A DNA stretch of 23,604 nucleotides. It comes from a virus. Lineage: Duplodnaviria > Heunggongvirae > Uroviricota > Caudoviricetes. The stretch covers positions 1 through 23,604 of the IMG/VR virus record IMGVR_UViG_2529292985_000014; one strand, given 5' to 3'. The notes beneath the pieces are model-generated. The model was given only the letters and a program-made list of their open reading frames with translations. It ran no database searches and was not told the origin of the DNA. Positions 1 to 15,982 of this stretch are shown here, piece by piece. The translations under genes were made by a program, and so were the position numbers. Each line of letters starts with the position of its first letter. Position 1 is the first letter of the stretch.

Positions 1-80
1 TTGCTGTTCCCGTCACCTTGCTAAATTAGTTTTCTAACATATTTTATTAGTTTGATGACGGTATCGGAAGATGCAATAAA

Positions 81-110
81 CAAAAAACCCGCTAACTGGC
101 GGGTTTTTAT
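81..110. terminator. Bidirectional rho-independent terminator closing the leftward accessory operon
   Basis: A-tract 81-87, stem AACCCGC (86-92) pairing with GCGGGTT (99-105), loop TAACTG, then T-tract 104-108. Reads as hairpin plus U-run on both strands. Lies just past the last minus-strand ORF (ends 115). Confidence 0.6.
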
Positions 111-114
111 GCAA

Positions 115-429
115 TTACTGTGTTGCAGCCTGATAAATAAGATACGAGATAAATACAGGTACGATGGCCCATTGCAGCAATGAAAGTAGCCTCATTACTG
201 TTATTGGGGTAACTCCATCCACGTATTGTTTCTCTGACATTTTCCCTAACCAACTAACCGACAACAGTGCCGAGTTTTCACCCAATTCCAGCTCTCTGAG
301 CGCTTCACGGATTAACGGCGCTGTCACAGCCTTAACCGGTGTGCTCAACGTGATACTCCGCGTCCTCCCCGCATCGTCAGCGAACGCCAGACTCACATAA
401 TATTTTTTGCTCAATGTACAAACTCCCAA
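115..429 (-). CDS. Hypothetical small protein with hydrophobic C-terminal segment; last gene of the accessory operon
   Basis: 104-aa ORF in the track. No ATG near the 5' end. A more likely start is TTG at 414-412, overlapping the upstream stop as TTGA (coupling). C-terminus LLSLLQWAIVPVFISYLIY looks like a membrane anchor. Terminator follows. Confidence 0.4.
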   Translation of the reverse strand: MGVCTLSKKYYVSLAFADDAGRTRSITLSTPVKAVTAPLIREALRELELGENSALLSVSWLGKMSEKQYVDGVTPITVMRLLSLLQWAIVPVFISYLIYQAATQ

Positions 430-611
430 TCATCAGCGCTTGCACTTTCCGGGGTTATGTGAACCTTATCGCCAGTAACAATATTGCGAGCTTCAAAACT
501 TCCATTGATACGTTTCGAGATCTCAATACATAGAGCCTGCTGCCATGAGCGACGACGAGCGATAGCATTAGTTCCTGCAGGGATAAGTTCTGCCACGTTA
601 AGTAAACGCAA
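411..611 (-). CDS. Hypothetical 66-aa protein
   Basis: ORF with TTG start and GGAG about 9 nt upstream. Sits 14 nt downstream of the VRR-NUC stop. No recognisable motif. Confidence 0.35.
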   Translation of the reverse strand: MRLLNVAELIPAGTNAIARRRSWQQALCIEISKRINGSFEARNIVTGDKVHITPESASADDWEFVH

Positions 612-625
612 AACGATTTCTCCGT

Positions 626-1120
626 TTAATCAAGACAAACATACTCCGTGATAGCTTTTATGGCTTCAGCGGCACTGCGCGCCTCAAAGCAGTAGTAACC
701 GGCTTCTGTGAGGCGCGTCATCCAGACGAGTTGTTCGGGAGTCAGGCGATTTCTCCCATGTTTCATCTCAATGCGCATTCCGTGGTATCCCCCACAAGCA
801 AGGTCTATAGAAAGATCGGGATATCCCTTCTTTTGGCCCTCTGCCACCATTTTTATTGCCGTCCTTATGCCTCGCAGGCCACCGTTTGGAGTGGCGTGAG
901 TATGCTCATACACATAACGCATATTGCGATACATCCAGTCCAGGACGCGAACCTGCTCGTAATGCTCATGGTTCCTTTTGATTAGATCTGGATTTTTCTC
1001 CAGTTCTCTAAGAGCTGCGGCATGTGGGGATGTTTCAGAATATTCACTGCGACGCCTTCTCTTTCGCGCTATTTTTCTAACACACCCATTGATAGTAAAT
1101 ATGCAAAATAATAACAACAA
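626..1120 (-). CDS. VRR-NUC domain (PD-(D/E)xK) nuclease with basic N-terminal extension
   Basis: Translation contains PNGG...GYPDLSIDL...GMRIEMK...RLTPEQLVWMTRLTEAGYY, matching the VRR-NUC pattern (G-x-PDL, E-x-K, LTPEQ..W) as I recall it. Only in-frame starts upstream of the domain are TTG 1120 or 1117, with no Shine-Dalgarno, so the start is uncertain. Confidence 0.55.
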   Translation of the reverse strand: MLLLFCIFTINGCVRKIARKRRRRSEYSETSPHAAALRELEKNPDLIKRNHEHYEQVRVLDWMYRNMRYVYEHTHATPNGGLRGIRTAIKMVAEGQKKGYPDLSIDLACGGYHGMRIEMKHGRNRLTPEQLVWMTRLTEAGYYCFEARSAAEAIKAITEYVCLD

Positions 1121-1144
1121 CGTTAGGTTTGTAGAATAAGAGAG

Positions 1145-1172
1145 ATACTACTCAAGGATCATCTATATGCAA
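1145..1172 (-). promoter_or_regulatory. Candidate sigma70-type promoter upstream of the VRR-NUC gene
   Basis: On the minus strand: TTGCAT, 16-bp spacer, TAGTAT, inside the 144-bp gap between the 84-aa ORF and the VRR-NUC ORF. A 8-bp-stem hairpin GGGTAAAT/ATTTACCC at 1221-1244 precedes it. Prediction by eye only. Confidence 0.2.
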
Positions 1173-1264
1173 CAGGTCGGATGTCCTTTTAAGGTAAAGC
1201 GTGACCTTAATCAACAAGGAGGGTAAATCGCATGGCATTTACCCAACCTGTTATTTTTAAAGGG

Positions 1265-1519
1265 TTATATTTTATCCTGTTCGGATAATTCTTTGATTGT
1301 CTTGTCGATTGCGATCAACCAACCTTCATAGGTTAAATCATCAACAAGTTCTACCAACTTATCATCGGTGTGAGGAAAGTATATCCAGCTCCAGTTCGCA
1401 GGGTTTTCTGCTTTTCGCAGCGTAAAAACCTTCTTGTATCGGTGGAACTCAAGGACATACCCCTTCGATATGGAATATCCCTTTAGGTCTTCGACCGTAA
1501 ACCTACGATTCTTTCGCAT
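1265..1519 (-). CDS. Hypothetical 84-aa protein (occupies the position I recall for P1 lxc)
   Basis: ATG start 2 nt after the stop of the upstream 144-aa ORF (TAG-CC-ATG), suggesting coupling. No motif recognised. Confidence 0.4.
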   Translation of the reverse strand: MRKNRRFTVEDLKGYSISKGYVLEFHRYKKVFTLRKAENPANWSWIYFPHTDDKLVELVDDLTYEGWLIAIDKTIKELSEQDKI

Positions 1520-1521
1520 GG

Positions 1522-1956
1522 CTACCCCATGATTCGATATTTCTCTACAGACTCGTCGTAACTTGTGTACACGTATGGCTCTGTATCATCGGCATAAGGT
1601 GCGACTTCCAGAGCATGAACAGGATTGTATACCGCGTCATTTTCCAGGCGATCGCTCGAATACAGATGCCCAGCCAAAACCGTAAGCGCCGGGCGACTCA
1701 TTTTGTAGATCTCTGCCACATCGCTATCTACAACTTGTCCAAATGATATGTCGCCGCGCTCCAGCAATAACGTTTTAAGCGCAGGCCACCACGGCCCATA
1801 AAGGTGATAAAGCTGTGGATCTCGTTTCAGCCTTTCCACCATGCCATTCAGATATGCATCCAGAAATGCCTCTTCACTCCTGCCATTGAGCGCCTGCGGC
1901 AAAATGTCCTCAAGGTAGGATTCCGTTGGTTTTACTGTGTCGATCAATGTTGTCAT
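1522..1956 (-). CDS. Hypothetical 144-aa acidic protein immediately downstream of darB (position I recall for P1 ulx)
   Basis: ATG start. Its AGAGG Shine-Dalgarno lies inside a hairpin CGGCCTC-TTTC-GAGGCCG (about 1963-1980) that sits between the darB stop and this start. Acidic, aromatic-rich sequence with no known motif. Confidence 0.45.
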   Translation of the reverse strand: MTTLIDTVKPTESYLEDILPQALNGRSEEAFLDAYLNGMVERLKRDPQLYHLYGPWWPALKTLLLERGDISFGQVVDSDVAEIYKMSRPALTVLAGHLYSSDRLENDAVYNPVHALEVAPYADDTEPYVYTSYDESVEKYRIMG

Positions 1957-1992
1957 TTTAATTCGGCCTCTTTCGAGGCCGCTCCATATCTG

Positions 1993-4900
1993 TTAAGCCG
2001 CCGCTTCAATGATTTTACGCACTTCATCAATTGAATAGCGCGTCGATACCATCCAGGCCGGACGGTCAAAGTCCACATCGGCAACCGGGTTAACTTCGAA
2101 GTTCCAGAAACGCCCACCGATTTTCTTGATGGCATCTTTTGCGTTGCGAATAGATGAAGATCCGGGCATATCTGCAATGAGATAAACAGCACCAGCGTCT
2201 TCACTTACGCTCCACCAGCGACCGCGGACACGTGCTTTGGCGCGAATAGGCTTATCGTTTACCACGATAATGTAATCATCATTTGCTGCCTCGTCAGCCT
2301 TATTCTCAGCAGCATCAGCCTGTTCTTCCCGTTCAGTCTTAGCCGCCGCAAGACGTTCAGCAATCTCTGACTCCGTAGCGCCACTATTTTTAAGCGACAC
2401 AAAGTCATCCCACGTTGCAGATTTCAGAGCATCAGGCAACTCTTCCACATACCCGCCCGCTTTTAAGGCGTTAGCATGGCGTATAGCCATCCCGACAAGA
2501 CGATTCAAGCTATCTGCATCTGCGAAATCATCACGGGTAATGCTTTTATCCTCAAATGCATGAATTAACGCCCCCGCTTTAATCCAGACTGTTGCAGATG
2601 TTTCAAGCGGATTATCGGCATTAGAAATGCTTAGTTGCGCACTGTAAACTGACTGATCTGCCAACGAGGCAAGTGACGCCCAACCATCTGCATCACTTTG
2701 CATTTTGTACTGATCAAACAGCGCATCACGCCATGCATTTAGCGCCATGCGTGTTTTCTCAATTTTGGTTGTGATTTTGGACGTTCGCAGTTGTTCGAAC
2801 ATCTGCGAAATCTCCGAACCATTGGTGAAGGCTTTCATGCGCCCCTGGAAATCGCGGAAAGAAAGCACGCCTCGCCAGTACGTTTCCAGGCCTTCTCCAT
2901 TTGGCTTGCGGAACAAGCTGCGGACATCTTCCTGAGTCACTTTTTCAAGTGAACGCCCGGAGAGATCGCGCCCTGCCATCCAGCCATCGAACGCCTTGAC
3001 CACATCATCCATAGTGGCCTGAGCGCCCCATGCCTCCATACCTTGCTCATAATCGAAGCCAAACAATGCACGGAGAAAACCTTCTGCCTCTGAAATACGA
3101 AGTGGGTTATCACCTGTCTGGATTTTCGCGACTTCGCGTTTTAATGCTTCGTCGTTTACATCAGGATAAATCCATTGTTCAGGTGCTATCTCGTCACTTC
3201 CAGATGCGCTAATTTTTTGACCAATCATCCCGCCATAGGTAAAGGCCATTTGAATCTGACCATTGGCGTTACGATAAGCCCAATAGTTTACATCCGGTGC
3301 TCCTTGCCAACCGCCACGATCTCTCCCAGTTACCCGCATAACACCGCTACGAATAGCGTCATAGAATTGATCGCGAGAAAGAGAGGTTGAAAGCTGGTGG
3401 CTTTGAACACCACGTGCCGCTATTTCTCGTGATTCAGCCACCCCCTCTTCAAATGTTACCGCTTCAACCACTGAGTCAAACGGTAATGTCATGGTTGAGC
3501 CAGGAGAACGAGAGTGGCGACTTGCTCTATCCAGCCAGGCGACGCGGCAGGTGTATTGCGCTTTTTCGCCCTCAATTTGTGTCACGCGTACAATCGCCGT
3601 TGTCTCGTATTCAGCATCAATGACTGCACGGTAGTAACTACCTTTATGCAACAGGATGTTCTTGCCAGTGCGCATATACTCCTGCGGGTTCTGAATAACA
3701 TCGATACTGATATCCAGCACACCAGACTTAATAGCACGCTCCACATCACCACGAGAGCGTTTCATAACAGTATCCGCGTCCTTCGCCCTGGTGATTGCAA
3801 ATCGCAATTCACGCACTCTTTTTTTAGCTTTGCTTAGTGCTGAAAGCGTATATTTCTGTCCGTTTTTGTTGGTGCCGCTCTTAATCAGTCCATCCAGATC
3901 ACTCTGGTATCGTTGCGCCTGCTCCATCGCGCTTTTCAGTTCTGCCTCCATCATGCCGATATCCTTCCCGGCAGCATTCGCCGCTTTCAGGTAGTTATCG
4001 AGAGCATTATTGGCTTCGCGTTGCGCTTTAAGTCGCAGGCGTTCCTCACGTTCTTTCGACTGACGAGCCATAATTGCGCGTCGTTCTTCCGGATTTGCCG
4101 CCAGCATAATGGCGCGCTCATCAGCGTCATCCGCATCACCATTGGCGATCTCTGACATATCGGAGGTCATCACCATCTTGATCCAGTCTTTCTTACGTTT
4201 AAGCGTATCCAGACGGAAGTCATCGAATGTGCCTTTGCCACAATAATAGTGAACATTAACCTTCTCTTGCGGAGAACCTACGCGCGCACCGCGCCCATTT
4301 CGTTGGTCGATACTGGCAGGAGTCCAGGGTAGTGTCAGGTGGTGAATATCGGTCGTTCCAATATGCAGGTTGATACCTACTTCGGCTTTCTTGTTACAGA
4401 TAATGATTTGCGTGCGCCCTTCGTTATAGTCGGCAGCAATACCTTCCATCCCCTCAAGGCCAGCATCATTTTTAGCAGAGAGATAATCCTCATATTGGGC
4501 CAGTTTACTGTAGTAGGTTTCCCATGCGCCTTCTTTGTATTCACCGTCTTTGTTTGGCGTCGGTTCGGTCGGTTTTTTGACCTTTTTCAGCTTAACACCA
4601 CCAGCCTGGCTAACAGTCGTAGCATTGATAATGCCTATCTCCTGCTCTGGCATTTGCAACGCACTGGCAATGATGCGACGTAGTTTCTGGTGCTGGGCTT
4701 TCTCGTCGATAAAGATAATTTGCTTACCGTTCTTAAGCCCTTCACGAAGGTTCTCGATAAGTGCGGCATACTTAGGCGGGATCGGGTGTGACACCTGTTT
4801 CATGTCGATGCCTGCATCAGCAATTGCCTTGAGTATTTCAGCCTCCAGGTCAATGCTGGCACGCAATTCGACGTGATTTGGATGCTCACTAAATGTTGTA

Positions 4901-7900
4901 GCTACAACCTTGCTGGTACGGGTACTGACCAGGCCTCCGATCGCATCCTCCTCTGCTTCTTCTGCATCGTCTGCCGCTTTCCCACCAGCCACTTTTGGTA
5001 GGTTATTAGCTATAGACTTCACCTGTTCAGTAAGTTCTACAGGGAACTGGAATGTGATAGCGCTGGCGTAAAGATCCGGGTCGATAGCGACCTTATCCAT
5101 GTCGCGAATGATAGAGAAAATGAAATCATCCGGTTTCCCGCGAGTGATATTGCCTTCATCATCGACAGTGACGTCATCACCACGACTTAACTCCTGCGCG
5201 CGTTTACGAAGCTCTTCATAAGCTGCTTGCTGCTCTGGAGTCATTGGGATCTGCAAGGTGTTTTCGACGATATCCGGGATTTTTACCGTTGCACCAACAT
5301 CGGAAGCCGTTTTAAGCGTTGTCCAGCGGTGGAAAATGCCACGCAGACCATCAAGGTTCTGGAAGCCCACCAGCCCCTGTTTCTCTTCCACTTCGCCAGA
5401 AATTTTCTGGACCTGAACAGTGGCTGTTTTACCGAACACTCGCACAAAGTCGTCAGGGGTAATAATCCCCATGTGCATCCACTCGTGCTGAGGGATCACC
5501 GTTGACAGCATGTTGAAGGCGTCAATAGGGCTATTAACCAGCGGAGTTGCTGTCAGCATTACGACGCCGCGCCCATTGTGACGTTTCATCATGTACGCAG
5601 CTTTTACAGCCATGTCACGGGCCATTTTGGATACCGCCGGATTAGGTAAATATGCCAGTTGCCCCGCTTCACGCCCGGCACCAAAGGAGTTGCGGTAGTT
5701 ATGCCCTTCGTCGGCAATTACGCTATCGAAGTTCATATCCTCAAAGTACGGGATATTCTGCTTCTTCGCTGTACCGGTATTCGCGGCCTGGTCCTTAATC
5801 TTGTTCTTCTTCTGCGCATCACGGTGCTTGCCTGACGCCAGGTCAAGACGCCCCATTTCGGCGGCATTAAAGACAGCCTGCTGTGAGTTTTCTCCGATGG
5901 TTTCATCGCGCAACGGGATAGATGCGAACTGCTCTTTTGTCATGATGACCGTTCGCCAGTTCGACGATGGGATCATGTTCATGCGTTGAGCGATAACGGC
6001 ACTGGCGGATTCTTTAACAACATTACGGGTGATCGGATTGCCGTCGTTATCAAGTCGCGGGGTGCCGTCCTGGTCGAGCACTGGGGCAGTCTGAATATTT
6101 CCGTCACCATCGCGCACTTCGTCCAGACCGATAAACATCATATTGGCGAAGGCATCTGCACTGTAGAAGCTCTGTGCCTCGTGATACCAGTTCTGGTATA
6201 CGGCCTTTGGAACAACGATACAGGTACGTTTGGTTCGCCCGGTTTCAAAGTTATAGGCTTCCAGTGCCAGCGCGGTCGTCGTTTTACCCAAACCAGTTCC
6301 GAATCCCATAATCCCGCGCCCATCTTCCGACAGACGACGAACTTCTTCGTTCTGGTAAGAAAGCGGTATACGTTTCCCGCTGATGCCTTCAAGCCCCAGG
6401 GGTGCGTCTGAATGGGTAAATGGAATATAACCGTTAAAGGCGTCGTTATAATCGCGGGCGATCTGGTCTGCCTGCGGGTGAGTTCTTAACCAGTCGTTAA
6501 AACTCGTCTCAAGCTGGGCGATTTTGTCCAGGTACTCGTTAGCGTTCTGTCCGCGCGGTTTAACACCGTTCAGGTAGTTCTCAAGCTGATTCAGGAAGCC
6601 ATCTTTGTTATTCGCTTTCTTGAACTCGTTCCCGTTTTTGCCGTTTACGGTTCGTAGCTGGTAGCCAGTAAATACCCCGTCCTTACCTTCGTAATCGTCC
6701 GGGGATACCAGAATGCCGTTCTCAACCTTAAGGTCGGGTTCTGTATACTTAAACTCGTCATAGCCCTGCTCTGCCAGGAACTCTTTTATCAGGCGGCGAT
6801 CCAACCACCGTGCGTTAAGGTTTACCGTGACTTTGTTCAGCGGTGTAAACGTGCGTTTCTCTTCGATTTTTGAAAGCTGGCGCTCAAAGTTGGCCTTCCG
6901 CTCTCCTGTGGACGCGTCTCGCCAGCCCACCAGCAGTGCCACTTTTGATTTAATATCACCGCTAGTGGCACGGCCCATCGGTAGCAGGCAACCATATCCA
7001 TCAATAGCGATATCGTCGAATTTCGCCAGGTATTCCTGTGCTTGATCGTCGTCTTCTGGCAGTTCGCCTTTAAACGCCTCGCGGAAGTCATCAAGATTGA
7101 TAGGATTAAGGGCAACATCGCTGAAAAGGTGTGTCACAACCTGTTCCGGACGAGTGAAATCAATACCAGCAGCCCCTTTGCTAACATCAAGCCGTCCGGA
7201 CAGCAGATCGGATGCTTCACCGTCCTGATTGACGTTCCCGGTGAATGTCAGCCAGTTCTTCGCGCCCGCTTCGGTAATGTCGTTTAGCTTAATGGCGTGT
7301 GGTGGGCCATATTTAGCAACTTCGGCAGCCGTCAGACGTGCGGCATCAGCCAGTTCATCATCGACGTTTTCACCAAGGTTACGCTTATCCAGCGCTTTAT
7401 TGATAAGTTGCCCGATCAGCGCACCGCGCATAATGCGCTCACGGTCTTTTTCGCGTTGTTTCCCAGCAAAGCGAATCATTGCCGCTACTTCATCACTGAT
7501 AACCGATGGATAGTCGGAAGCGATCGCGGATATCTGCCCCCATGACAGAGCCAGAATGCCGTTTGTTGATTGGAACGTTGTTTGCAGATCACCGAATGTC
7601 GAAACACCATATCGGCTTACATCAAGTACGGAGGATTTGGTTGTCGCATCTTTAACCCATTGCAGGCCATCAAACTCGTGCCAGATGCCACCTACAAGGC
7701 GCTTGTCTCCTACTTTGGCGCCCTGCCATGCCTGAGTAGTTACGCCAAGCAAATCCCAATTAATGCGGCTTTCAAAGCGGCGCGATAGAGCGGTTTTCAT
7801 CGACTCATTGGATACACGACCGTCCTTTTTCACCACCAGAGTATTGCGGAAGCTGGTACGTTCCATGTCGCCGTAAACAAATCGCTTCCCTTCGGTTGTA

Positions 7901-8910
7901 AACCATTTTCCTTTGAGGAAGGTATCCCAAAGGACGTTTGCCGATTTGAGTGTTGAATCATCCGTGTCGGGGATCATCTCCAGGAAGGTTTCCGGGTGTT
8001 TACGCAATACCCATACGTCCACCACGGTATCTGTACCGGATTCGCTGAACGTACCGGAAGGCATACGATGTGCGCCCAAAAATTCCGCTTTACGGCTGAC
8101 TTTATCGCGCAATTTTTTATATTTCGTACCATCGGTCATGCCATTCGGCACCACCAATACGATAAGCCCACCAGGCTTAACCTTGTCGATCGTGCGCAGC
8201 ACAAAGTAATTGCCAACGTTCTTCTCGTTTGCATATGCCGGATCAAGCCCGGCGACACCGGAACGCCCTTCACCAAACGGTACGTTACCAACAGCGTGAT
8301 CATACATTGCGTCTTTCGCCGCCAGCGCCTCAAACGCCCCGATATTCACATCGTCTTCCGGGTGCAAAAGCTGGTTTATTCGACCGGAAATCGGAGACAG
8401 TTCGGCGCTGGTCATTATCATGCCCTGTCGTTTTGTCTCCTGGAAAATACCTGTGCCCGCTGATGGTTCCAGTACGTGCCCGCCATCAATACCGTAGTCA
8501 GCAAACAGATCCCATATACCTTCAGCCATAAACTGTGGCGTGTAGTATTCGTATTGGCTGCCCTCACCATCTGTCAGGCCGCCTTCACCGGTATACCCGG
8601 CAAGAATCTGACGCTGTTCGTCAGTTAATTTCGCCCCATCGAAGCCGGGCGGAAGGGAATTAAGAAGCTCTACTGCGGCGTTGTTTGCTGCCCGCCGTGT
8701 TTTTTGAATGCTGACACCATCGACTTTCTTAACGCCAAAGGTCGCAACAGCACGTAATTTATGCAACCGACTAACAATTTCAATCAGTTCGCCTAAGCTG
8801 GAGGCTTCACTGATTGAATGAAGTAGTTTATCCAAAGGATTACCCCCTCTAAACCGTAAAAAATCCGCTATGCGGTACGGTTGAGAGGGTATGGAGAATG
8901 TTATTTTCAC
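1993..8910 (-). CDS. darB: DarB-like giant protein: N6-adenine DNA methyltransferase domain plus SF2 helicase core plus long C-terminal region
   Basis: 2305-aa uninterrupted ORF. MTase motif I VLEPSAGTGIF and motif IV GNVPFG (NPPF-type), roughly nt 7900-8560. Helicase Walker A GFGTGLGKTTT (about nt 6270), motif II VIADEGH (about nt 5710), motif III LTATP, motif VI QRNGRGARVG (about nt 4290). The track start is GTG 8910 with no SD. TTG at 8835-8833 is preceded by AGAGGGGG at 7 nt and may be the real start. Confidence 0.8.
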   Translation of the reverse strand: MKITFSIPSQPYRIADFLRFRGGNPLDKLLHSISEASSLGELIEIVSRLHKLRAVATFGVKKVDGVSIQKTRRAANNAAVELLNSLPPGFDGAKLTDEQRQILAGYTGEGGLTDGEGSQYEYYTPQFMAEGIWDLFADYGIDGGHVLEPSAGTGIFQETKRQGMIMTSAELSPISGRINQLLHPEDDVNIGAFEALAAKDAMYDHAVGNVPFGEGRSGVAGLDPAYANEKNVGNYFVLRTIDKVKPGGLIVLVVPNGMTDGTKYKKLRDKVSRKAEFLGAHRMPSGTFSESGTDTVVDVWVLRKHPETFLEMIPDTDDSTLKSANVLWDTFLKGKWFTTEGKRFVYGDMERTSFRNTLVVKKDGRVSNESMKTALSRRFESRINWDLLGVTTQAWQGAKVGDKRLVGGIWHEFDGLQWVKDATTKSSVLDVSRYGVSTFGDLQTTFQSTNGILALSWGQISAIASDYPSVISDEVAAMIRFAGKQREKDRERIMRGALIGQLINKALDKRNLGENVDDELADAARLTAAEVAKYGPPHAIKLNDITEAGAKNWLTFTGNVNQDGEASDLLSGRLDVSKGAAGIDFTRPEQVVTHLFSDVALNPINLDDFREAFKGELPEDDDQAQEYLAKFDDIAIDGYGCLLPMGRATSGDIKSKVALLVGWRDASTGERKANFERQLSKIEEKRTFTPLNKVTVNLNARWLDRRLIKEFLAEQGYDEFKYTEPDLKVENGILVSPDDYEGKDGVFTGYQLRTVNGKNGNEFKKANNKDGFLNQLENYLNGVKPRGQNANEYLDKIAQLETSFNDWLRTHPQADQIARDYNDAFNGYIPFTHSDAPLGLEGISGKRIPLSYQNEEVRRLSEDGRGIMGFGTGLGKTTTALALEAYNFETGRTKRTCIVVPKAVYQNWYHEAQSFYSADAFANMMFIGLDEVRDGDGNIQTAPVLDQDGTPRLDNDGNPITRNVVKESASAVIAQRMNMIPSSNWRTVIMTKEQFASIPLRDETIGENSQQAVFNAAEMGRLDLASGKHRDAQKKNKIKDQAANTGTAKKQNIPYFEDMNFDSVIADEGHNYRNSFGAGREAGQLAYLPNPAVSKMARDMAVKAAYMMKRHNGRGVVMLTATPLVNSPIDAFNMLSTVIPQHEWMHMGIITPDDFVRVFGKTATVQVQKISGEVEEKQGLVGFQNLDGLRGIFHRWTTLKTASDVGATVKIPDIVENTLQIPMTPEQQAAYEELRKRAQELSRGDDVTVDDEGNITRGKPDDFIFSIIRDMDKVAIDPDLYASAITFQFPVELTEQVKSIANNLPKVAGGKAADDAEEAEEDAIGGLVSTRTSKVVATTFSEHPNHVELRASIDLEAEILKAIADAGIDMKQVSHPIPPKYAALIENLREGLKNGKQIIFIDEKAQHQKLRRIIASALQMPEQEIGIINATTVSQAGGVKLKKVKKPTEPTPNKDGEYKEGAWETYYSKLAQYEDYLSAKNDAGLEGMEGIAADYNEGRTQIIICNKKAEVGINLHIGTTDIHHLTLPWTPASIDQRNGRGARVGSPQEKVNVHYYCGKGTFDDFRLDTLKRKKDWIKMVMTSDMSEIANGDADDADERAIMLAANPEERRAIMARQSKEREERLRLKAQREANNALDNYLKAANAAGKDIGMMEAELKSAMEQAQRYQSDLDGLIKSGTNKNGQKYTLSALSKAKKRVRELRFAITRAKDADTVMKRSRGDVERAIKSGVLDISIDVIQNPQEYMRTGKNILLHKGSYYRAVIDAEYETTAIVRVTQIEGEKAQYTCRVAWLDRASRHSRSPGSTMTLPFDSVVEAVTFEEGVAESREIAARGVQSHQLSTSLSRDQFYDAIRSGVMRVTGRDRGGWQGAPDVNYWAYRNANGQIQMAFTYGGMIGQKISASGSDEIAPEQWIYPDVNDEALKREVAKIQTGDNPLRISEAEGFLRALFGFDYEQGMEAWGAQATMDDVVKAFDGWMAGRDLSGRSLEKVTQEDVRSLFRKPNGEGLETYWRGVLSFRDFQGRMKAFTNGSEISQMFEQLRTSKITTKIEKTRMALNAWRDALFDQYKMQSDADGWASLASLADQSVYSAQLSISNADNPLETSATVWIKAGALIHAFEDKSITRDDFADADSLNRLVGMAIRHANALKAGGYVEELPDALKSATWDDFVSLKNSGATESEIAERLAAAKTEREEQADAAENKADEAANDDYIIVVNDKPIRAKARVRGRWWSVSEDAGAVYLIADMPGSSSIRNAKDAIKKIGGRFWNFEVNPVADVDFDRPAWMVSTRYSIDEVRKIIEAAA

Positions 8911-9798: not shown

Positions 9799-10211
9799 AG
9801 TTACGGCCTCACTAACAGGTTTAACAACCTGCTACCCGCTGTCAAACAGGTGGCAGGACGTGACAGGGTTGACAGACTGGCGTTAGTGAAACCAGCAGGC
9901 CGAAGCCTCCCCATCACGCCCCACCATAATTCGGGCGTAACGCGGTTTACGGACACAAAAATACCGCAATATCGGAAATCTGCGGTTGTCCGCACTAACA
10001 TTCAGGCTGTCAAACCTGGTCGCAGAATTTGCTACGACGGCATGAATATAAGCCTGAAAACATGGAAGATCAACTAAAAATTTCAGCAATGGATGACTTC
10101 AGTCGATGATGCAGATCATACATTCCGATTTAGAAACAGAAAATTAATTTTCTAATACAAATCATCGAGCGAGCATTTGCCGATCATTGGGATGTTTTGT
10201 AGGCACACAGG

Positions 10212-11174
10212 TCATCCCCTAAATCCCGCAGGGATTGACCAATCCTCCCGGTCAAATTCAGACCGATAGCCACGCTGTTTCATCAGGTCAAAGGCTTCAC
10301 CAATGGTTGCACACCCCTGGGAGCCAGAATAATCCATTGAGAAATCCAGGGCACTGGATTGTTTAGGCTTATTCACTGCGGTAGCGGCACTACGTATCCA
10401 TGCAAATTTTTTTGCCAGCTTTTCAGCGGTACGATACAGAGCCTGCCGTTTTGCGTGCCCCTCGTCTGAACGACGCTTTGCAGCTCTCGCTTTTGCCGCC
10501 GCCAGGCAGCGGTTGGTATGTTCTTCCCTGATTACTGGTTTTTTATCCAGCACCCCATTATCCGCTTGAGAACTATCTGCTGGTGAAGCCTTTGGCTGAA
10601 CCGCGCATGATCTTTCTCTTCTTTTTGCTATAGAGTGACTCTTATTTTCTATTGGCTGTTCATTTTGAACATGGGGGGACTTGTTCAAAATGAACAGGGG
10701 GTTCCCAGTTTCAAAAAAATAACGAACCTTTGAAATCAACTGCTTAACCAGTTTTGTGGCGTTGGCAAATTTGATGCCCTGCTTACCCCCTATCTCCATT
10801 GCTGCATGAATGAAGTGGAGAAATTGTGTCGTAAACCGATATACGTTACACACCTGGGCATTGTTATTCGCTACCTGATGTTGCCTAACAAGCATTCCGC
10901 ACTTCGTCGCTTCAGCAAATGCCCGGCGTACAGTAGAAATACTGCGTCCTGTAATCTCGGACATATCAGCATATGAGCGACGGATCATGTATTCATCGGT
11001 AGCCCCTGCCAGGTTGGCGAACTCGGCAATAATAGCGCTATGTGAAGGGGAAAGAAGACCGCTATGACGAGCAAAAAAACTCAACTGATGACCTTTGATT
11101 TTTTTGTGGTATTCAGTGTTGTTTTTATACTCAGAAGTGTTGAAAGTTACTGAAACTGAATTTAAAATATTCAT
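10212..11174 (-). CDS. Hypothetical DNA-binding protein with HTH-like segment and basic central region
   Basis: 320-aa ORF with ATG start. HTH-like MSEITGRSISTVRRAFAEATKCGMLV. Lys/Arg-rich stretch AKARAAKRRSDEGHAKRQ. Contains the paired palindromes at 10658-10702 in its linker region. Confidence 0.5.
   Translation of the reverse strand: MNILNSVSVTFNTSEYKNNTEYHKKIKGHQLSFFARHSGLLSPSHSAIIAEFANLAGATDEYMIRRSYADMSEITGRSISTVRRAFAEATKCGMLVRQHQVANNNAQVCNVYRFTTQFLHFIHAAMEIGGKQGIKFANATKLVKQLISKVRYFFETGNPLFILNKSPHVQNEQPIENKSHSIAKRRERSCAVQPKASPADSSQADNGVLDKKPVIREEHTNRCLAAAKARAAKRRSDEGHAKRQALYRTAEKLAKKFAWIRSAATAVNKPKQSSALDFSMDYSGSQGCATIGEAFDLMKQRGYRSEFDREDWSIPAGFRG
10658..10702. repeat. Two adjacent palindromes TGTTCA-TTT-TGAACA and TGTTCA-AAAA-TGAACA, each followed by a G-run, inside coding sequence
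   Basis: Read directly: 10657-10705 is CTGTTCATTTTGAACATGGGGGGACTTGTTCAAAATGAACAGGGGGTT. It encodes ...NPLFILNKSPHVQNEQP... of the 320-aa protein. Confidence 0.6.
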
Positions 11175-11224
11175 CAGATAGTTCCGTGAAAAAATCTATC
11201 TACCGTATAAATCTATGCCAGTGG

Positions 11225-11234
11225 ATTTATACAC
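11225..11234 (-). promoter_or_regulatory. Candidate extended -10 element (GTGTATAAAT on the minus strand) for the 320-aa gene
   Basis: Lies between the terminator at 11236-11269 and the ATG at 11174. Weak; prediction by eye. Confidence 0.2.
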
Positions 11235-11235
11235 C

Positions 11236-11269
11236 AAAAAGCCGCTTCTCAGCGGCTTTTGCTTTTTTT
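11236..11269. terminator. Bidirectional rho-independent terminator
   Basis: A5 at 11236-11240, stem AAGCCGCT (11239-11246), loop TCTC, stem AGCGGCTT (11251-11258), then TTGCTTTTTTT. About 100 nt downstream of the 332-aa gene stop. Confidence 0.6.
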
Positions 11270-11328
11270 GGCAGTCGCTACCGGAGCAGTGACCGCGATC
11301 CTACTCGATCACATCGGACAGAATCAAC

Positions 11329-11346
11329 AGTGTATATAAATACACT
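11329..11346. promoter_or_regulatory. 18-bp AT-rich perfect palindrome AGTGTAT-ATAA-ATACACT (operator-like or -10-like)
   Basis: Read directly. Geometry GTGT-N8-ACAC resembles a LexA box (CTGT-N8-ACAG) but the outer conserved C/G positions are swapped. Sits between the 332-aa gene stop and the terminator. Confidence 0.3.
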
Positions 11347-11374
11347 ATGTTAGAAATTTAATTTCATTCTGCGG

Positions 11375-12373
11375 TTATGCCCGTCGTGAAACGAAGAGTA
11401 ATGGGGTAGTATTTTTGCTCTCCTTCGGCGATAACTCCGGCTCTTTCTTGCCTGATATCGGCAAGCCATAAGTCGCATTTGCCCCCAGTGATTCAAGCAT
11501 CGCAGCCACTATGCGAGCATCATCTTCAGACTGCATACGGCAGAGCGCCCGGCGCTGTTCTGCGCTAATAAAAACAGGCATTTCCTGGATAGCGTCACGC
11601 AAAATCCGGCGGCATTGCTTTGCATTTTCCCCCTGGCTTTCCATCATCGCTGTTTGAGTGCGCAGCTTATCTCGAAGCTGTATGTTTTCCACTTCAAGGA
11701 GCATCAATTCTGACTCAAGGGCTTCACGCTGTGCTGACTCGAAAATAGCCTGCTGATTCTTCATTGCTGAAAAGTGGTGAACAAGATCCGTAGCCGCGTT
11801 ATCGGTAAAACCTTGTTCGATAAGTGCCGCATGAATAGCCGCGTCGCGCTCTTCTGCTGATTCCAGCATCAGGCTTTTCTTGTCCAGACTGATATAGTTA
11901 GGCACAGTTACGTAATCAAAGCCGTGAAAAGACTTTACCAGGGATACAGATGAATCTGGGCCAGATGTAGCCCATGACCAACCACCCGCACCAGAATTAA
12001 TCATTCCCTGTACAATACGCCCGGTGTCTGTATCCAGTATTTCCTGCGTATGGGTAACAATGCCGTTGTCGTCAATCGAAATGTCGATAGTCCTGTTTGA
12101 TGGCACGTTCTCCAATACAACAGGTTTCCCATCAACCATCACAACAGAGACTTCCGGCAGGTTCAGGCTTTTCGTTTTGTTATAGTGCATCGCCCGGCGA
12201 CCATGACCGTAATAGCCATACATCTCACCAAGTGCGATACGCTCTTTTGTTTCTGGCGAGTTGAATGTGTCTCGCACCGACTGAATAACGTAATTTCGGT
12301 TGTTCTGCGGTGTGTGTTTGCGGATTTTCTCTACCAGGGAGAAGCGATCCGTAACAGTGTTCAGTGATTGCAT
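11375..12373 (-). CDS. Putative prohead protease / scaffold-like protein (possibly P1 Pro-like)
   Basis: 332-aa ORF: N-terminal globular part with Gly/Ser-rich GAGGWSWATSG, central coiled coil ALESELMLLEVENIQLRDKLRTQ, short C-terminal tail. The layout resembles prohead protease-scaffold fusions. Assignment is by architecture and neighbourhood only. Confidence 0.3.
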   Translation of the reverse strand: MQSLNTVTDRFSLVEKIRKHTPQNNRNYVIQSVRDTFNSPETKERIALGEMYGYYGHGRRAMHYNKTKSLNLPEVSVVMVDGKPVVLENVPSNRTIDISIDDNGIVTHTQEILDTDTGRIVQGMINSGAGGWSWATSGPDSSVSLVKSFHGFDYVTVPNYISLDKKSLMLESAEERDAAIHAALIEQGFTDNAATDLVHHFSAMKNQQAIFESAQREALESELMLLEVENIQLRDKLRTQTAMMESQGENAKQCRRILRDAIQEMPVFISAEQRRALCRMQSEDDARIVAAMLESLGANATYGLPISGKKEPELSPKESKNTTPLLFVSRRA

Positions 12374-12386
12374 TATTTCCCTCCGG

Positions 12387-14069
12387 TTAATTGCTCATCA
12401 CAAATTTTGCAAAGTTTATTAACTGTTCTGGCGTCCAGTTTTCCGGATCGTCACCGGACGACAACGGCGCGGATTCGTACATACCATGCTCGTTGTTTTG
12501 CTCTGATTCATTCGCCTTAAACTCTTTGATCATGGTGTTGAGAGTGTCATCGTCGATGTGCAACTGCTCGGTAAACAGATAACGCATAAACGCGTCACTA
12601 CCAGCCAGTTTCGGGTTGTTCTGGATCTGGTCCATAATTTGGGAGATGACAGCAACAAAGTTGGCGCGTGCATCCAGTTCCCGGTTTTCCTCTTCCTGAA
12701 TAGCAGTGTTCATTGAGTTGAATTGCACGTCATAAGGGCGGTTTTTTTCGGTGTAAACCTTGCCGTATTTATAAGCGAGGTGAATGTCCAGAAGCTGATA
12801 AATAGTTCGCTGGGCGGCCTGTCTGATCCAGTTCGCACGCAATGCAGCCTGGATAGCAGTTTGCTGCCAGCCGCCTTCTCCAAGCCCTCCGCTCATCTGA
12901 TCAGCCCAGCCAAGCATTGTTGCGTCAATGCCGAGGCTTGCAGCAAGCTGCCGGAGGTGAAACATAACGTCTTCGATACCACTGATATCTGCGGGTATGG
13001 ATTGCGTATCAATGGTGATGCCGTTCTTCCCGTCTCCCATAACAGGTATCAGATGGTTAAGCACAGTTGGAATAGCGTTGGCATTAATCGACCTTTGCGC
13101 CACCAGGTCACTATGACGCTTCAATGCCTGGCTGACGCCACGCGTATAGTTCGCCGCATTAACCGGGTCAAGTGTGTTCGTCGTAAGAGCAATCAGGCGG
13201 TCAATTTTGGCTGCATTATTTCGCGTTGATTTCAGCGCGGCGAGCGAAGCACATAAATTAAGGTAAGGTTCATAGCTGTATTCCAGGAATGAAGTTCCGT
13301 AATTCTGCGTCTCCATTAACGGCTTATCAGCTTGATCACTTAACAGTGAGTACCCTTTTGTGCCGTAGCTAACCGGAATAACTTTATGCTGTGGCGTCCA
13401 ATAGGGATTTTTCATGGAAACCAGATTCCACGGTTCGGTTATTACTCTGCGCAAACTATGCGTATCCAGGATGTAATCACCACTGAATCCAACCAGCTGG
13501 CTACCGCGATAAAATTCCTGGACGAAATGTGGCAGAGTGTAATAACTGGACTCAATGCCTGTTATCCCCCTGCCCTGTTCAGCATAAGGTCGGACATAAG
13601 ACACCCCAAAGATCGCCATGATCATGGCCCATGAAGGAAGTCCGTCATTAATCATCGCCCCCAAATCAGCGGTTAACTCTTCACATCTACTTACTGCCTC
13701 GGCATCGGAACCATCCTTTGGCGAAAGGATGAATGCCTGTCCGTTTTTTTTTGAAGGCGCAAGCGCATGTGCAATGTGAATGTTTAAAGCCGTCGAGATA
13801 GTCGGGCTTTTAGCCATCGTTTCCAGGATGTTGTACTTTTGCAGGCGCTCGCCGGGCAGTTCAGCGGATAAAGAAATTGAATCTGCCTCACTCGTCATGC
13901 CATCGCTATTGCTCCCCAGGATGCCTGGACGTAAAGCAGACAGGCCGGAACGAGCAACGACACTATGTCCGCTCGTAAAAACGACCGGATCGGCGGGCGT
14001 AACATCACCACCGTTGAAGGCTTTCTTCAATGCTGACAGAAAGCCTTTGTTTTTGTCTTTCGTTGCCAT
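12387..14069 (-). CDS. Putative portal-like virion structural protein
   Basis: 560-aa ORF with ATG start preceded by GGTGA. Size and acidic C-terminus fit a portal protein. It directly precedes the protease-like gene. No diagnostic motif verified. Confidence 0.3.
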   Translation of the reverse strand: MATKDKNKGFLSALKKAFNGGDVTPADPVVFTSGHSVVARSGLSALRPGILGSNSDGMTSEADSISLSAELPGERLQKYNILETMAKSPTISTALNIHIAHALAPSKKNGQAFILSPKDGSDAEAVSRCEELTADLGAMINDGLPSWAMIMAIFGVSYVRPYAEQGRGITGIESSYYTLPHFVQEFYRGSQLVGFSGDYILDTHSLRRVITEPWNLVSMKNPYWTPQHKVIPVSYGTKGYSLLSDQADKPLMETQNYGTSFLEYSYEPYLNLCASLAALKSTRNNAAKIDRLIALTTNTLDPVNAANYTRGVSQALKRHSDLVAQRSINANAIPTVLNHLIPVMGDGKNGITIDTQSIPADISGIEDVMFHLRQLAASLGIDATMLGWADQMSGGLGEGGWQQTAIQAALRANWIRQAAQRTIYQLLDIHLAYKYGKVYTEKNRPYDVQFNSMNTAIQEEENRELDARANFVAVISQIMDQIQNNPKLAGSDAFMRYLFTEQLHIDDDTLNTMIKEFKANESEQNNEHGMYESAPLSSGDDPENWTPEQLINFAKFVMSN

Positions 14070-14133
14070 GAATCACCGCAAATTGTTTCCAGTTTTGCGG
14101 CAGCATAATCAGTATGTGATTTCAGCGGTTGGT

Positions 14134-15531
14134 TTAGTTTTCTGTACGGCAATTATTTGGAACTGTAGAATTTTCAAACATAGCAAAGTTCAGACCTTTC
14201 CCTTCGCCAAATTCACCCTCAATTTCATCAGATACAGCAGACAAAATACTACGCAGATCAACATCGCCACCGCCGAACATATCGCCCAATGCCTGTTGTT
14301 TATGAGTCAGCTCGTCGTTGATTTTTTGCGCCATTTTTTTGAATGCTGCCCCCATACGCTTCGCACTGCGATTATTTGCTACGATGAATAGCGCCAATGC
14401 CTCAGCTTCCGGTGTACTGTCGCCGAATAACCCCCTTTGGGCGATCACTTCTTCAACGGCCTGACCGTTGTCTTTGGCTTCACGTACAAGATTAATTGCT
14501 TCCTGGAGTGCTGCTATCGCCTGTGTATCCAGGCCATTAACCTGCTCTATACCGTCCACTAAGCCTGTTACTGCGTCATGGTGAGCGTCGCCAGACAGCG
14601 ACTGCATTTGCGCAAAATCGCTGGCTGCCGTATTTAATGCGATCAGGATATTACGCATTTCCGGATCTGGCTCTTCCGACACCAGCCGAACAAGCCTTTC
14701 ATCCTTGTACGCTTTGGCAAAAATTGCATTCTGGATGCGATCGATAAGCTGTTTCGTGGGACGCCCATCGGCAGTAAGCAAGCCTGCCGTCGCTGTATCG
14801 CCAATTTCGCGCAAAAACGCACGAATAAACGCATCATTGGACCGCGCCAGCAGGTTTCCATCATCTGAAGGATTAAATAGCGCCATGACGCTCTCAGTGA
14901 GAAATTGCGCATCCGCATACGCTTTTTCACTTGCTGCCATCTCTTGCAGATCACTAATGTTTGAATCGCGGGCAAATTGAGCGCGGTCTACATCTGTGAG
15001 TCTTTCTCGCACCAGTACGGGCATAGACATTTGCGAAATTTCGTCAGGATTCAGACCAAACTCTTTCGCATGGTCGATCAGGTACTGGCGATACTCATCC
15101 GCCTGTCCTTGCTCATAGGCACGCCAGATACCCATACTCCTTCCGTTGCCGGATTCAACAACGTTGTCCGGACCAACTATCGGCGCTCCATGGCTGCTCA
15201 TACCGGAATCCGTTAATTGTGCCGGGCGTAAATCGGAGGCAATACGGTTAACCTGGAGTTTGCTGGATAGCCGGGTACGATCTCGTGGTTGGAGTTCTTC
15301 CGGGAAGGCCGGGTTAATCGTACCGTCAAGGTTGTTCGAAATGATTAGACTGCTGGCATCAACGACCTTAAAAGCCGTCTTTACCTCTGCGCCTTTGCTG
15401 GTGACTACGTAGCTACTTCGCCCCATGCGTGTTTCTTTCCTCTCTAATGAAGAAACCAGAGCAATGACGCTGTTAATATCTGCGGCCTCGGAAAGCGCAG
15501 AAGTAACTGATTTGTTCAAAATACACTCCAA
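14134..15531 (-). CDS. Hypothetical alpha-helical protein, possibly a virion internal protein (downstream of the DdrA-like gene)
   Basis: 465-aa ORF. Track start is TTG 15531. An alternative TTG at 15519-15517 has GGAG 6 nt upstream. No motif recognised. Confidence 0.35.
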   Translation of the reverse strand: MECILNKSVTSALSEAADINSVIALVSSLERKETRMGRSSYVVTSKGAEVKTAFKVVDASSLIISNNLDGTINPAFPEELQPRDRTRLSSKLQVNRIASDLRPAQLTDSGMSSHGAPIVGPDNVVESGNGRSMGIWRAYEQGQADEYRQYLIDHAKEFGLNPDEISQMSMPVLVRERLTDVDRAQFARDSNISDLQEMAASEKAYADAQFLTESVMALFNPSDDGNLLARSNDAFIRAFLREIGDTATAGLLTADGRPTKQLIDRIQNAIFAKAYKDERLVRLVSEEPDPEMRNILIALNTAASDFAQMQSLSGDAHHDAVTGLVDGIEQVNGLDTQAIAALQEAINLVREAKDNGQAVEEVIAQRGLFGDSTPEAEALALFIVANNRSAKRMGAAFKKMAQKINDELTHKQQALGDMFGGGDVDLRSILSAVSDEIEGEFGEGKGLNFAMFENSTVPNNCRTEN

Positions 15532-15588
15532 CTATAGAGAAAGCTGTGAGTGTAAAAAGAGTGTGATTTATGTGAGAACAGAGAAGTG

Positions 15589-15611
15589 AAAGGGGGATTC
15601 CACCCCCTTTT
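15589..15611. terminator. GC hairpin AAAGGGGG-ATTCCA-CCCCCTTT between the DdrA-like and 465-aa genes
   Basis: Read directly. Followed by TTTTG on the plus strand and TTTC on the minus strand. A TATAGT -10-like hexamer lies just downstream on the minus strand. Could be an attenuator or partial terminator. Confidence 0.3.
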
Positions 15612-15613
15612 GA

Positions 15614-15982
15614 TTACCCGGCATAACCGTTGGCTTTCACCCAGCTTATGGTCTGTTCTTTAGCCTGCTCCAACGTAAGGAACTCGCCAACATAGTTTGA
15701 GATCCCACGCAGCGCATCAATAAATTCCATTTGTGTGGACTTTGTGAACACACCGCCCAGGAAGTCAGTCACTATCTTAGGGACTTCATCTACAACAGGA
15801 TCAGTCTGTTGTTGCGGTTCCGCTGCCGGTTGCGCGGCAGTCCCCAGGCCCAATTTCAGCATCACATCAACAATCTGCTTACCAATGGTGACGCGTTGCA
15901 ATACTGGCGCAGTTTTCTGCGCCTGCATTAGATCTGATAGCTCTTTACCTAATTTCAGGCGGTCTAAAACAGAGATGGTCAT
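15614..15982 (-). CDS. DdrA-like small protein encoded directly downstream of the DarA-like gene
   Basis: 122-aa ORF. Its ATG overlaps the upstream stop (TAATG), indicating coupling. Assignment by position only. Confidence 0.4.
   Translation of the reverse strand: MTISVLDRLKLGKELSDLMQAQKTAPVLQRVTIGKQIVDVMLKLGLGTAAQPAAEPQQQTDPVVDEVPKIVTDFLGGVFTKSTQMEFIDALRGISNYVGEFLTLEQAKEQTISWVKANGYAG

Follow-up and report, generated by a model that had tools for sequence, protein, structure and literature searches.

Are the small genes that follow the anti-restriction gene darB in a P1-like virus new defence-related cargo, or do they belong to the ordinary backbone of the element that carries them? The question is raised by positions 115-1956 of IMG/VR virus record IMGVR_UViG_2529292985_000014, of which positions 1 to 23,604 were analyzed (hereafter the window, 23,604 nucleotides (nt) in length). 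Five open reading frames (ORFs) of 144, 84, 164, 66 and 104 amino acids (aa) lie there on the minus strand after darB, as an original prediction made from the sequence alone had located them, and one of them encodes a VRR-NUC nuclease. Comparison with phage D6, plasmids and P1 indicates that this segment is very probably a conserved and already annotated backbone stretch of D6-type P1-like phage-plasmids, organized in two co-directional transcription units. The features referred to below, in the direction of transcription, are the following (compared sequences are labelled with L numbers).

1993-8910, minus strand: darB-like gene, a 2305-aa ORF upstream of the segment, given for context (from the ORF list; its D6 counterpart, orf15, is annotated "similar to P1 darB")
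1965-1985, minus strand: Shine-Dalgarno-like GGAG followed by a stem of 6-7 base pairs (bp) with a 4-nt loop, between the darB stop codon and the ulx ATG, with no T-run after it
1522-1956, minus strand: ulx, for Ulx (144 aa), a putative accessory protein for packaging DarB into the capsid (match to phrog_1629 and to P1 Ulx)
1265-1519, minus strand: 84-aa gene directly after ulx (D6 orf13; phrog_6844), encoding a probable divergent Lxc-like protein
1221-1244, minus strand: terminator-like hairpin closing the putative darB-ulx-orf84 unit (terminator scan)
1145-1172, minus strand: promoter-like element TTGCAT-N16-TAGTAT upstream of pmgM, found by conservation, with a putative promoter function
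626-1120, minus strand: pmgM orthologue, a VRR-NUC gene whose product has an N-terminal tail rich in K and R; the ORF is at most 164 aa long, and conserved coding sequence starts at ~1072
1069-1089, minus strand: six-codon mini-ORF ATG GGT GTG TTA GAA AAA TAG where the ancestral pmgM start lies, in the +1 frame with respect to the nuclease, with an A5 run at 1072-1076
411-611, minus strand: 66-aa gene (D6 orf11; phrog_7206) with a TTG start and a GGAG Shine-Dalgarno sequence; small beta-barrel model, possible remote Tad2-like domain
115-414, minus strand: pmgR-like gene, 99 aa from TTG 414, in an ORF open to 429 (104 aa); C-terminal hydrophobic segment
83-108, minus strand: strong intrinsic terminator closing the putative pmgM-orf66-pmgR unit (10-bp stem and T-run, with flanking A and T runs)

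The five genes are conserved in D6-type phage-plasmids

Over positions 1-3000 the window is colinear with Escherichia phage D6 (NC_050154 / MF356679; Gilcrease and Casjens 2018, as cited in PMC9024508), with 89% identity overall and ~97% nucleotide identity over positions 1-2100. At the protein level, D6 orf14 to orf10 match the five products with 97-99% identity; they are annotated in that order as ulx-like, hypothetical, pmgM-like, hypothetical and pmgR-like and are followed by a pmgS-like gene, orf9; the same segment, as D6 orf10-orf14, is thus already known. D6 shares with the window the five genes, their order, strand and spacing, and the terminator. The two differ by few substitutions, in the 84-aa protein, which is two residues shorter in the window, and in how the nuclease is called, D6 annotating it from the TTG equivalent to window position 1120 and PGAP truncating it in plasmids.

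The block was also matched in 127 plasmids from E. coli, Salmonella, Shigella and others, and it was colinear in 117 of these, a plasmid being counted as colinear when one match covered at least 80% of the query. The plasmids inspected were all non-mobilizable, 75-95 kilobases (kb) in size, and carried rep_cluster_1704. All five genes occur in the same order in plasmids of E. marmotae, S. dysenteriae and E. fergusonii, at 50-98% protein identity. Measured against these divergent relatives, the ratio of non-synonymous to synonymous substitution rates (dN/dS) is ~0.05-0.2 for each of the five genes, and within the window's own clade it is 0.02-0.24 across the five, indicating purifying selection. 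With their order conserved in D6, in plasmids and in divergent relatives, and with purifying selection acting on them, the five ORFs are real genes.

The same backbone can be followed into more distant relatives. Pantoea pEuc3 (L011) carries darB, ulx, a homologue of the 84-aa gene, a small ORF, PmgM, a further ORF, PmgR and PmgS, which is the same backbone order with two extra ORFs inserted. Two metagenomic Logan contigs (L030, L031) read darB, ulx, an 84/85-aa gene, VRR_NUC (163 aa), the 66-aa gene, pmgR-like and pmgS-like, and keep this order though their 66-aa protein is only 32-36% identical to that of the window. In a Salmonella arizonae relative of P1 (L032, CP053320, 3064-5315), ulx, lxc, pmgL, pmgM and pmgN follow one another directly and in the same direction, with ulx 85% and lxc 62% identical to their P1 counterparts.

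P1 itself (NC_005856) has homologous Ulx, PmgM and PmgR and shares the relative order darB, ulx, (lxc-like), pmgM, pmgR, pmgS, but its map is interrupted. There darB (10469-17236) is followed on one strand by ulx, lxc, mod, IS5 and res, so that the EcoP1 mod-res genes stand after lxc, and pmgL-pmgM and pmgR-pmgS lie near 78.6-83.7 kb, ~68 kb on the map from the darB-ulx-lxc region. In addition, pmgL precedes pmgM, pmgN-pmgQ lie between pmgM and pmgR, and P1 lacks a homologue of the 66-aa gene; searches against P1 proteins returned no match for either the 84-aa or the 66-aa protein of the window. The original prediction had taken ulx and lxc to flank darB in P1, with restriction-modification genes nearby. 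The restriction-modification genes are indeed nearby, but ulx and lxc both lie downstream of darB. Because Pantoea, the two Logan contigs and S. arizonae share the arrangement, the sequence comparison identifies a VRR-NUC gene shortly downstream of darB-ulx as the ancestral state, and P1 res-mod as the exceptional and derived one, produced by insertion or rearrangement.

Ulx and a probable Lxc-like protein

The 144-aa protein is identified as Ulx from its similarity to P1 Ulx (47% identity, E 1e-38) and its position directly downstream of darB, ulx beginning 36 nt past the darB stop codon. It also matches phrog_1629, "Ulx-like anti-restriction", with E 1.8e-59. In P1, Ulx belongs to the head and assists in the localisation of DarB or its incorporation into the capsid (PMC9024508, Table 1), and the protein in the window would likewise help bring the anti-restriction protein DarB into the capsid. 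PGAP records give Ulx the unexplained name "olxA", for which a literature search found no paper.

The hairpin between darB and ulx occupies the same place in 10 relatives (L001, L007, L008, L010, L011, L012, L003 (P1), L030, L031 and L032). Over 11 sequences its stem covaries, being formed by GGCCTC/GAGGCC, GGCCCC/GGGGCC, GCCCGG/CCGGGC or GCCCCC/GGGGGC. The hairpin probably serves to bring the Shine-Dalgarno sequence and the ulx AUG together, in analogy with phage T4, which has hairpin-bridged initiation sites.

The 84-aa gene starts 2 nt after ulx and is conserved (dN/dS ~0.16-0.23), with a homologue at the same position in Pantoea (30% identity, E 3e-11); a fold search with the protein gave no informative match. 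P1 Lxc (formerly Bof), annotated in the P1 record as a modulator of C1 repressor binding, also lies directly after ulx and has 82 aa against 84 (82-90 aa in the compared genes). The two families differ in showing no direct pairwise or profile similarity and in belonging to separate PHROG families (2160 for Lxc, 6844 for the 84-aa gene). A link between them is provided by an unannotated Serratia ORF (L012) directly after ulx, which scores 21.5 bits with a hidden Markov model (HMM) of the 84-aa family and 10.0 bits with an Lxc HMM, scores that none of 3000 composition-matched shuffles reached for either HMM. Once the Serratia ORF is placed in the template, hhalign gives 94% probability for the 84-aa family against Lxc, a value that is not independent of the bridge.

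Direct Lxc homology was rejected, BLASTP and hhalign both being negative and the Serratia bridge being the sole support. Identity with PmgL was also rejected, P1 PmgL being a DksA-like zinc-finger protein of another PHROG family. Because of the Serratia bridge, the same position and the same size, we consider the 84-aa protein to be probably a divergent Lxc, which would modulate the C1 repressor in place of P1 lxc.

The nuclease is a PmgM orthologue

The 164-aa ORF matches Pfam family PF08774 (VRR_NUC) over residues 45-150 with 27.0 bits, above the gathering threshold of 23.8, and agrees with the earlier description of a VRR-NUC nuclease with a basic N-terminal extension and no canonical start. 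By sequence it is the orthologue of P1 PmgM, to which it is 57% identical over 136 aa (E 1.65e-41); both belong to PHROG 2363, and both are encoded upstream of pmgR-pmgS. The PD-(D/E)xK core is present, with EHYEQ, GYPDL and IEMK conserved across the PmgM family. The core shows 15-18 synonymous changes and only 1 non-synonymous change within the clade, so the nuclease gene is not a degraded pseudogene, an outcome that the original prediction had considered.

The window protein can also be aligned with psNUC (PDB 4QBL) at E 6e-14, through PNGG, GYPDL and E-x-K. What sets the PmgM family apart from stand-alone VRR-Nuc proteins such as psNUC is a variable K/R-rich N-terminal extension of ~25-35 residues, found in all relatives, and a conserved SPHAxAL...NPDL...EHYEQV region, of which SPHAxAL...NPDL is absent from the crystallised proteins. 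The enzymes psNUC, stNUC and saNUC are dimeric Holliday-junction resolvases that cleave four-way junctions symmetrically (PMC4103454). By homology with psNUC, PmgM would act as a dimeric resolvase of Holliday junctions or branched DNA on replication and recombination intermediates. Deletion of pmgM in P1 was one of 24 knock-outs without a plaque or antirestriction defect, and deletion of pmgS was likewise without such a defect (PMC9024508). From the psNUC homology and the harmless P1 deletion, PmgM most likely serves as a dispensable resolvase, redundant with host functions, that acts on branched DNA from replication or recombination.

In PGAP plasmid records (L005, L006, L007, L013, L015) the VRR-NUC protein is called at 74-102 aa, starting inside the domain and lacking the EHYEQV helix. 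These calls are almost certainly wrong, as they remove the catalytic EHYEQV helix. The pmgR-like gene is often absent from the PGAP gene lists of the same plasmid records.

Candidate starts of pmgM

Upstream of its conserved core, the nuclease frame in the window contains neither ATG nor GTG, and the only candidates there are TTG 1120 and TTG 1117, neither with a Shine-Dalgarno sequence. Relatives of the S. dysenteriae type have an in-frame ATG (MKTITCVRNY...), E. fergusonii has a GTG, and E. marmotae has a later ATG. The ATG homologous to that of the S. dysenteriae type (1089-1087) opens the six-codon mini-ORF and lies outside the nuclease frame, which is -1 relative to it, in the window, D6 and all other clade members carrying the A5 run. 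Two sequences from different sources that are 1 nt apart in ~600, L015 (CP057763) and L017 (IMGVR_UViG_3300045988_131606), carry A6 where the others carry A5, and both nest inside the A5 clade. Their ATG is in frame, and their product, MGVLEKIARKRRRR..., is the exact product of a -1 slip by tRNA-Lys on the AAA before TAG. The pmgM leader is a candidate recoding site or homopolymer switch.

Translation from TTG 1117 is our tentative first choice, held at slightly under an even chance. A -1 ribosomal frameshift, in which the D6-clade nuclease would start at ATG 1089-1087 and slip on the AAA before TAG, is possible but doubtful, its alternatives being the upstream start at TTG 1117 or no start at all, in which case the gene would be silent. 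The frameshift is favored by the alignment of this ATG with the in-frame ATG of S. dysenteriae-type relatives, by a mini-ORF that is identical in all 20 clade members examined, and by the inherited A6 allele, which in two independent sequences fuses the ATG in frame to give the slip product. The site GAA AAA TAG offers exact re-pairing of AAA on AAA, with the core in the -1 frame and the zero frame ending right after it. Constraint on the coding sequence sets in two codons past the A-run, where codon 19 is CGA, AGG or AGA, all Arg, and upstream of the ATG there are 2 non-synonymous changes against 1 synonymous change in the nuclease frame, although these upstream counts are tiny. The first TTG is lost in many clade members, being replaced by TAG or CAG, but none of the 20 clade sequences lacks TTG 1117, which is in frame in the 18 with A5 and out of frame in the two with A6. 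The slip itself is also disfavored by its site, as A5 followed by a stop codon is weakly slippery and no stimulatory structure was found downstream (minimum free energy -17.5 kcal/mol against a shuffle mean of -16.6, z = -0.39), and the lack of a Shine-Dalgarno sequence applies to the ATG as it does to the TTG start. If a slip at GAA-AAA-TAG or switching between A5 and A6 did take place, it would hold PmgM nuclease levels low. A lipoprotein signal peptide read from the TTG start (MLLLFCIFTINGC) was rejected, as it has no charged n-region, contains an Arg in D6, and is absent in the relatives with an in-frame ATG.

The 66-aa gene and a possible Tad2-like domain

The 66-aa gene starts at TTG 611, with GGAG 8 nt upstream, and belongs to a narrow family. 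A full HMMER scan gave seven credible clusters at 50% identity, six of them of exactly 66 aa and one of 76 aa, after three repeat-protein matches had been judged spurious; word-indexed searches gave only 5 clusters for each small protein. The two divergent family members that were looked up (L030, L031) sit in the same gene context. The structural model (pLDDT 83.6) is a small beta-barrel with the order alpha, four strands, short helix, strand, and fold searches with it returned only generic Tudor, PWWP and SH3-like barrels. An assignment of the protein as PmgN was rejected, the HMM score falling below those of shuffles.

Of the five, this is the only gene that keeps any anti-defence possibility, and a weak one. 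The protein could be a minimal Tad2-like (DUF2829, PF11195) sponge for the signalling molecules of TIR- or cGAS-type immunity, with the rest of the segment remaining backbone, and we regard this as unlikely. The underlying homology to a Tad2-like domain is a closer call, and one that we place not quite at even. It stems from the syntenic Pantoea gene between PmgM and PmgR, which matches PF11195 with E 5e-5 and 24.2 bits, itself just under the Pfam cut-off; PF11195 is also the precomputed assignment for P0020. An HMM of the 66-aa family scores the Pantoea protein at 11.7-12.7 bits, and none of 5000 shuffles reached 11.7 (shuffle maximum 8.5). With hhalign the comparison gives P 6.5e-4 over 25 columns, but the significant similarity spans only ~24 residues, and the same motif matched unrelated Fc-receptor Ig domains in the PDB with E 0.03. 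The two families can be aligned colinearly over their full length with invariant R, W, G, D and W; they are similar in size, share an N-terminal "aRR..W" and a C-terminal "DW", and have a comparable order of elements. The order of secondary-structure elements in the model agrees with the topology described for Tad2 (bioRxiv 10.1101/2023.05.01.538930). No Pfam family other than PF11195 is matched by as many as two members of the 66-aa family (2 of 10 for PF11195, best E 0.15), but the window protein has no Pfam hit at E <= 10, the family stays below all curated thresholds, and no solved Tad2 structure was among the fold-search matches. A search with the Pantoea Tad2-like domain found only 2 clusters, too few for a DUF2829 profile.

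In Pantoea pEuc3 the gene between PmgM and PmgR (3133-3651, minus strand) is annotated at 172 aa, and elsewhere as an 87-aa protein with PF11195. Here a P1-like plasmid from a plant-associated host may carry an anti-defence gene directed at Thoeris. If the 66-aa protein were such a sponge, it would give D6-type phage-plasmids an anti-Thoeris or anti-CBASS function beside the Dar anti-restriction genes.

PmgR, pmgS and the interval between them

The last protein of the segment is identified by sequence as a homologue of P1 PmgR, with 33% identity over 61 aa (E 1e-6, BLASTP) and reciprocal cross-hits among PHROG 3177/9115/7212, and its gene stands just before pmgS, as it does before the pmgS-like orf9 in D6. 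Its start is most likely TTG 414, which yields the 99 aa that the D6 annotation and phrog_9115 also have; this codon overlaps the stop of the 66-aa gene and has GGGAG 8 nt upstream. The hydrophobic C-terminal segment that had been noted on this protein is borne out by a Kyte-Doolittle 19-residue mean of 1.9, and it is kept in character, though not in sequence, in D6-type and Pantoea homologues. P1 PmgR differs in having 72 aa and a soluble architecture without the ~30-residue hydrophobic C-terminal extension of D6-type PmgR. In P1, pmgR is essential for head completion, and its deletion leads to unjoined heads and tails (PMC9024508). D6-type PmgR consists of a PmgR core plus a hydrophobic tail, through which it may associate with membranes.

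In the E. fergusonii sequence L010 (CP099330; ~2337-2578) the pmgR-like gene is frameshifted, with a stop after 43 codons and a tblastn match in two pieces. Since pmgR is essential in P1, the L010 element may be defective or the record in error.

Beyond the terminator, pmgS follows in the same direction, starting just past the left edge of the window. The interval between terminator and pmgS contains a conserved motif, ACTAATAAAATATGTTAGAAAACTAATTT, at 23-51 on the minus strand, which is present in the five covering sequences compared (W, that is, the window, and L001, L007, L008 and L009) and occurs once in the window. The core of this motif resembles P1 C1 operators (ATTGCACTAATAA...), for example O26 (ATTGCACTAATAATTTT), and the motif may be an operator or promoter of pmgS.

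Proposed transcription units

The segment would be expressed as two units. In the first, ulx and the 84-aa gene would form the tail of the darB operon, ended by a weak terminator-like hairpin; in the second, pmgM, orf66 and pmgR would be transcribed from their own promoter-like element and ended by a strong terminator, with pmgS after it. The two are separated by a 144-nt gap (1121-1264) between the 84-aa gene and the nuclease gene, which holds both the hairpin and the promoter-like element and which does not fit the earlier description of the ORFs as tightly packed. The stem of the hairpin at 1221-1244, GGGTAAAT/ATTTACCC, recurs in relatives, where it includes G-T wobble pairs, and leads into a T-rich tail. 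Both hexamers of the promoter-like element are invariant, with a variable spacer, in 10 of 11 aligned sequences, the indel-ridden L016 departing. A search for the P1 late-promoter -22 box (AAGTGACT) found no match in positions 1-2100, and window-wide counts were at chance level.

The terminator at 83-108 is kept in position in relatives, with differing stem sequences. A clean bidirectional terminator had been predicted here. The strong terminator with its 10-bp stem is present, but bidirectionality does not hold, as the 5' A-run is not conserved and pmgS is co-directional.

In the Salmonella plasmid pSa1423-160k (L016, MK356558), the segment at 874-1523 is full of small indels, with an A4 run at the pmgM leader and almost no annotated genes. 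These indels look like low-accuracy assembly rather than biology.

Backbone stretch or variable cargo

In the original prediction, the segment, or the nuclease and its small partners, appeared as a possible cassette for defence, anti-defence or toxin immunity of a kind not yet described, a variable cargo lying at a hotspot beside darB. The segment does adjoin the anti-restriction genes darB and ulx, and for two of its five proteins no function is annotated. Elsewhere in the P1 family, moreover, the interval after ulx/lxc can take cargo, namely res-mod in P1 and, in Serratia pJSRIV002_3 (L012, 865-4380), an additional ~3.5 kb separating ulx from the VRR-NUC gene, with genes for a ParA/MinD-like ATPase, a DUF5983 protein and hypothetical proteins. 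In the window, the interval after ulx and up to pmgM contains the conserved 84-aa gene only, and the block as a whole is not variable, being invariant across the D6-type clade, already annotated in D6 itself, and constant in order even at the low 66-aa protein identities of the Logan contigs. Three of the genes are homologous to P1 backbone genes, including the head-completion gene pmgR, and loss of pmgM from P1 leaves antirestriction unchanged. The best match in PADLOC-DB was a 14-bit hit of Ulx to PDC-S05 (E 0.0098), with none for the other four proteins, and Pfam and NCBIfam scans of the five proteins returned no toxin or antitoxin domain and no meaningful defence hit. A cassette of this kind is highly improbable. 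The more modest alternative offered at the same time, P1 Ulx and Lxc homologues plus a nuclease, comes far closer, since Ulx and the PmgM orthologue are both recovered and the Lxc assignment is probable. Of the five proteins, Ulx, PmgM and PmgR have P1 homologues and the 66-aa protein does not.

Several observations weigh against the conserved-backbone reading or parts of it. The 66-aa gene is without a P1 counterpart, and pmgM, besides showing no plaque defect on deletion, has no known function even in P1. The 84-aa protein gives no BLASTP alignment with P1 Lxc, hhalign E values of 0.15-0.29 and HMM shuffle-test p values of ~0.02-0.2, so that its assignment rests on one intermediate, whose Lxc score of 10.0 bits compares with a shuffle maximum of 9.0. 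For pmgM in the D6 clade there is more than one candidate start, and the promoter-like element fits 7 of 12 consensus positions, below the scan threshold, and was missed by the scan. The conserved order, the purifying selection and the existing D6 annotation nevertheless leave a backbone stretch as the very probable reading.

Other features of the window

Outside the segment, a C4 antisense RNA with its a1/b1 target sites was found at 9846-9931 and 9999-10051 on the minus strand (Rfam, 68.8 and 54.4 bits). These sites lie ~1 kb from the darB promoter region, placing the immunity-I region beside darB here, where in P1 it is near 48 kb. A DdrB-like ORF at 14134-15531 (minus strand) is just 465 aa long and corresponds to positions 10-443 in a profile of 995 positions, P1 DdrB being 2988 bp; it is either a shortened DdrB or a split gene.

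Implications

The value of these results is mainly corrective. A VRR-NUC gene beside darB is the usual P1-family arrangement and not new cargo, and hotspot reasoning from the P1 map misleads when applied to D6-type phage-plasmids, elements often found in E. coli and Salmonella. The 84-aa gene is now provisionally tied to Lxc. A small remaining interest lies in the start of pmgM, the 66-aa gene, the hydrophobic tail of PmgR and the covarying hairpin before ulx.

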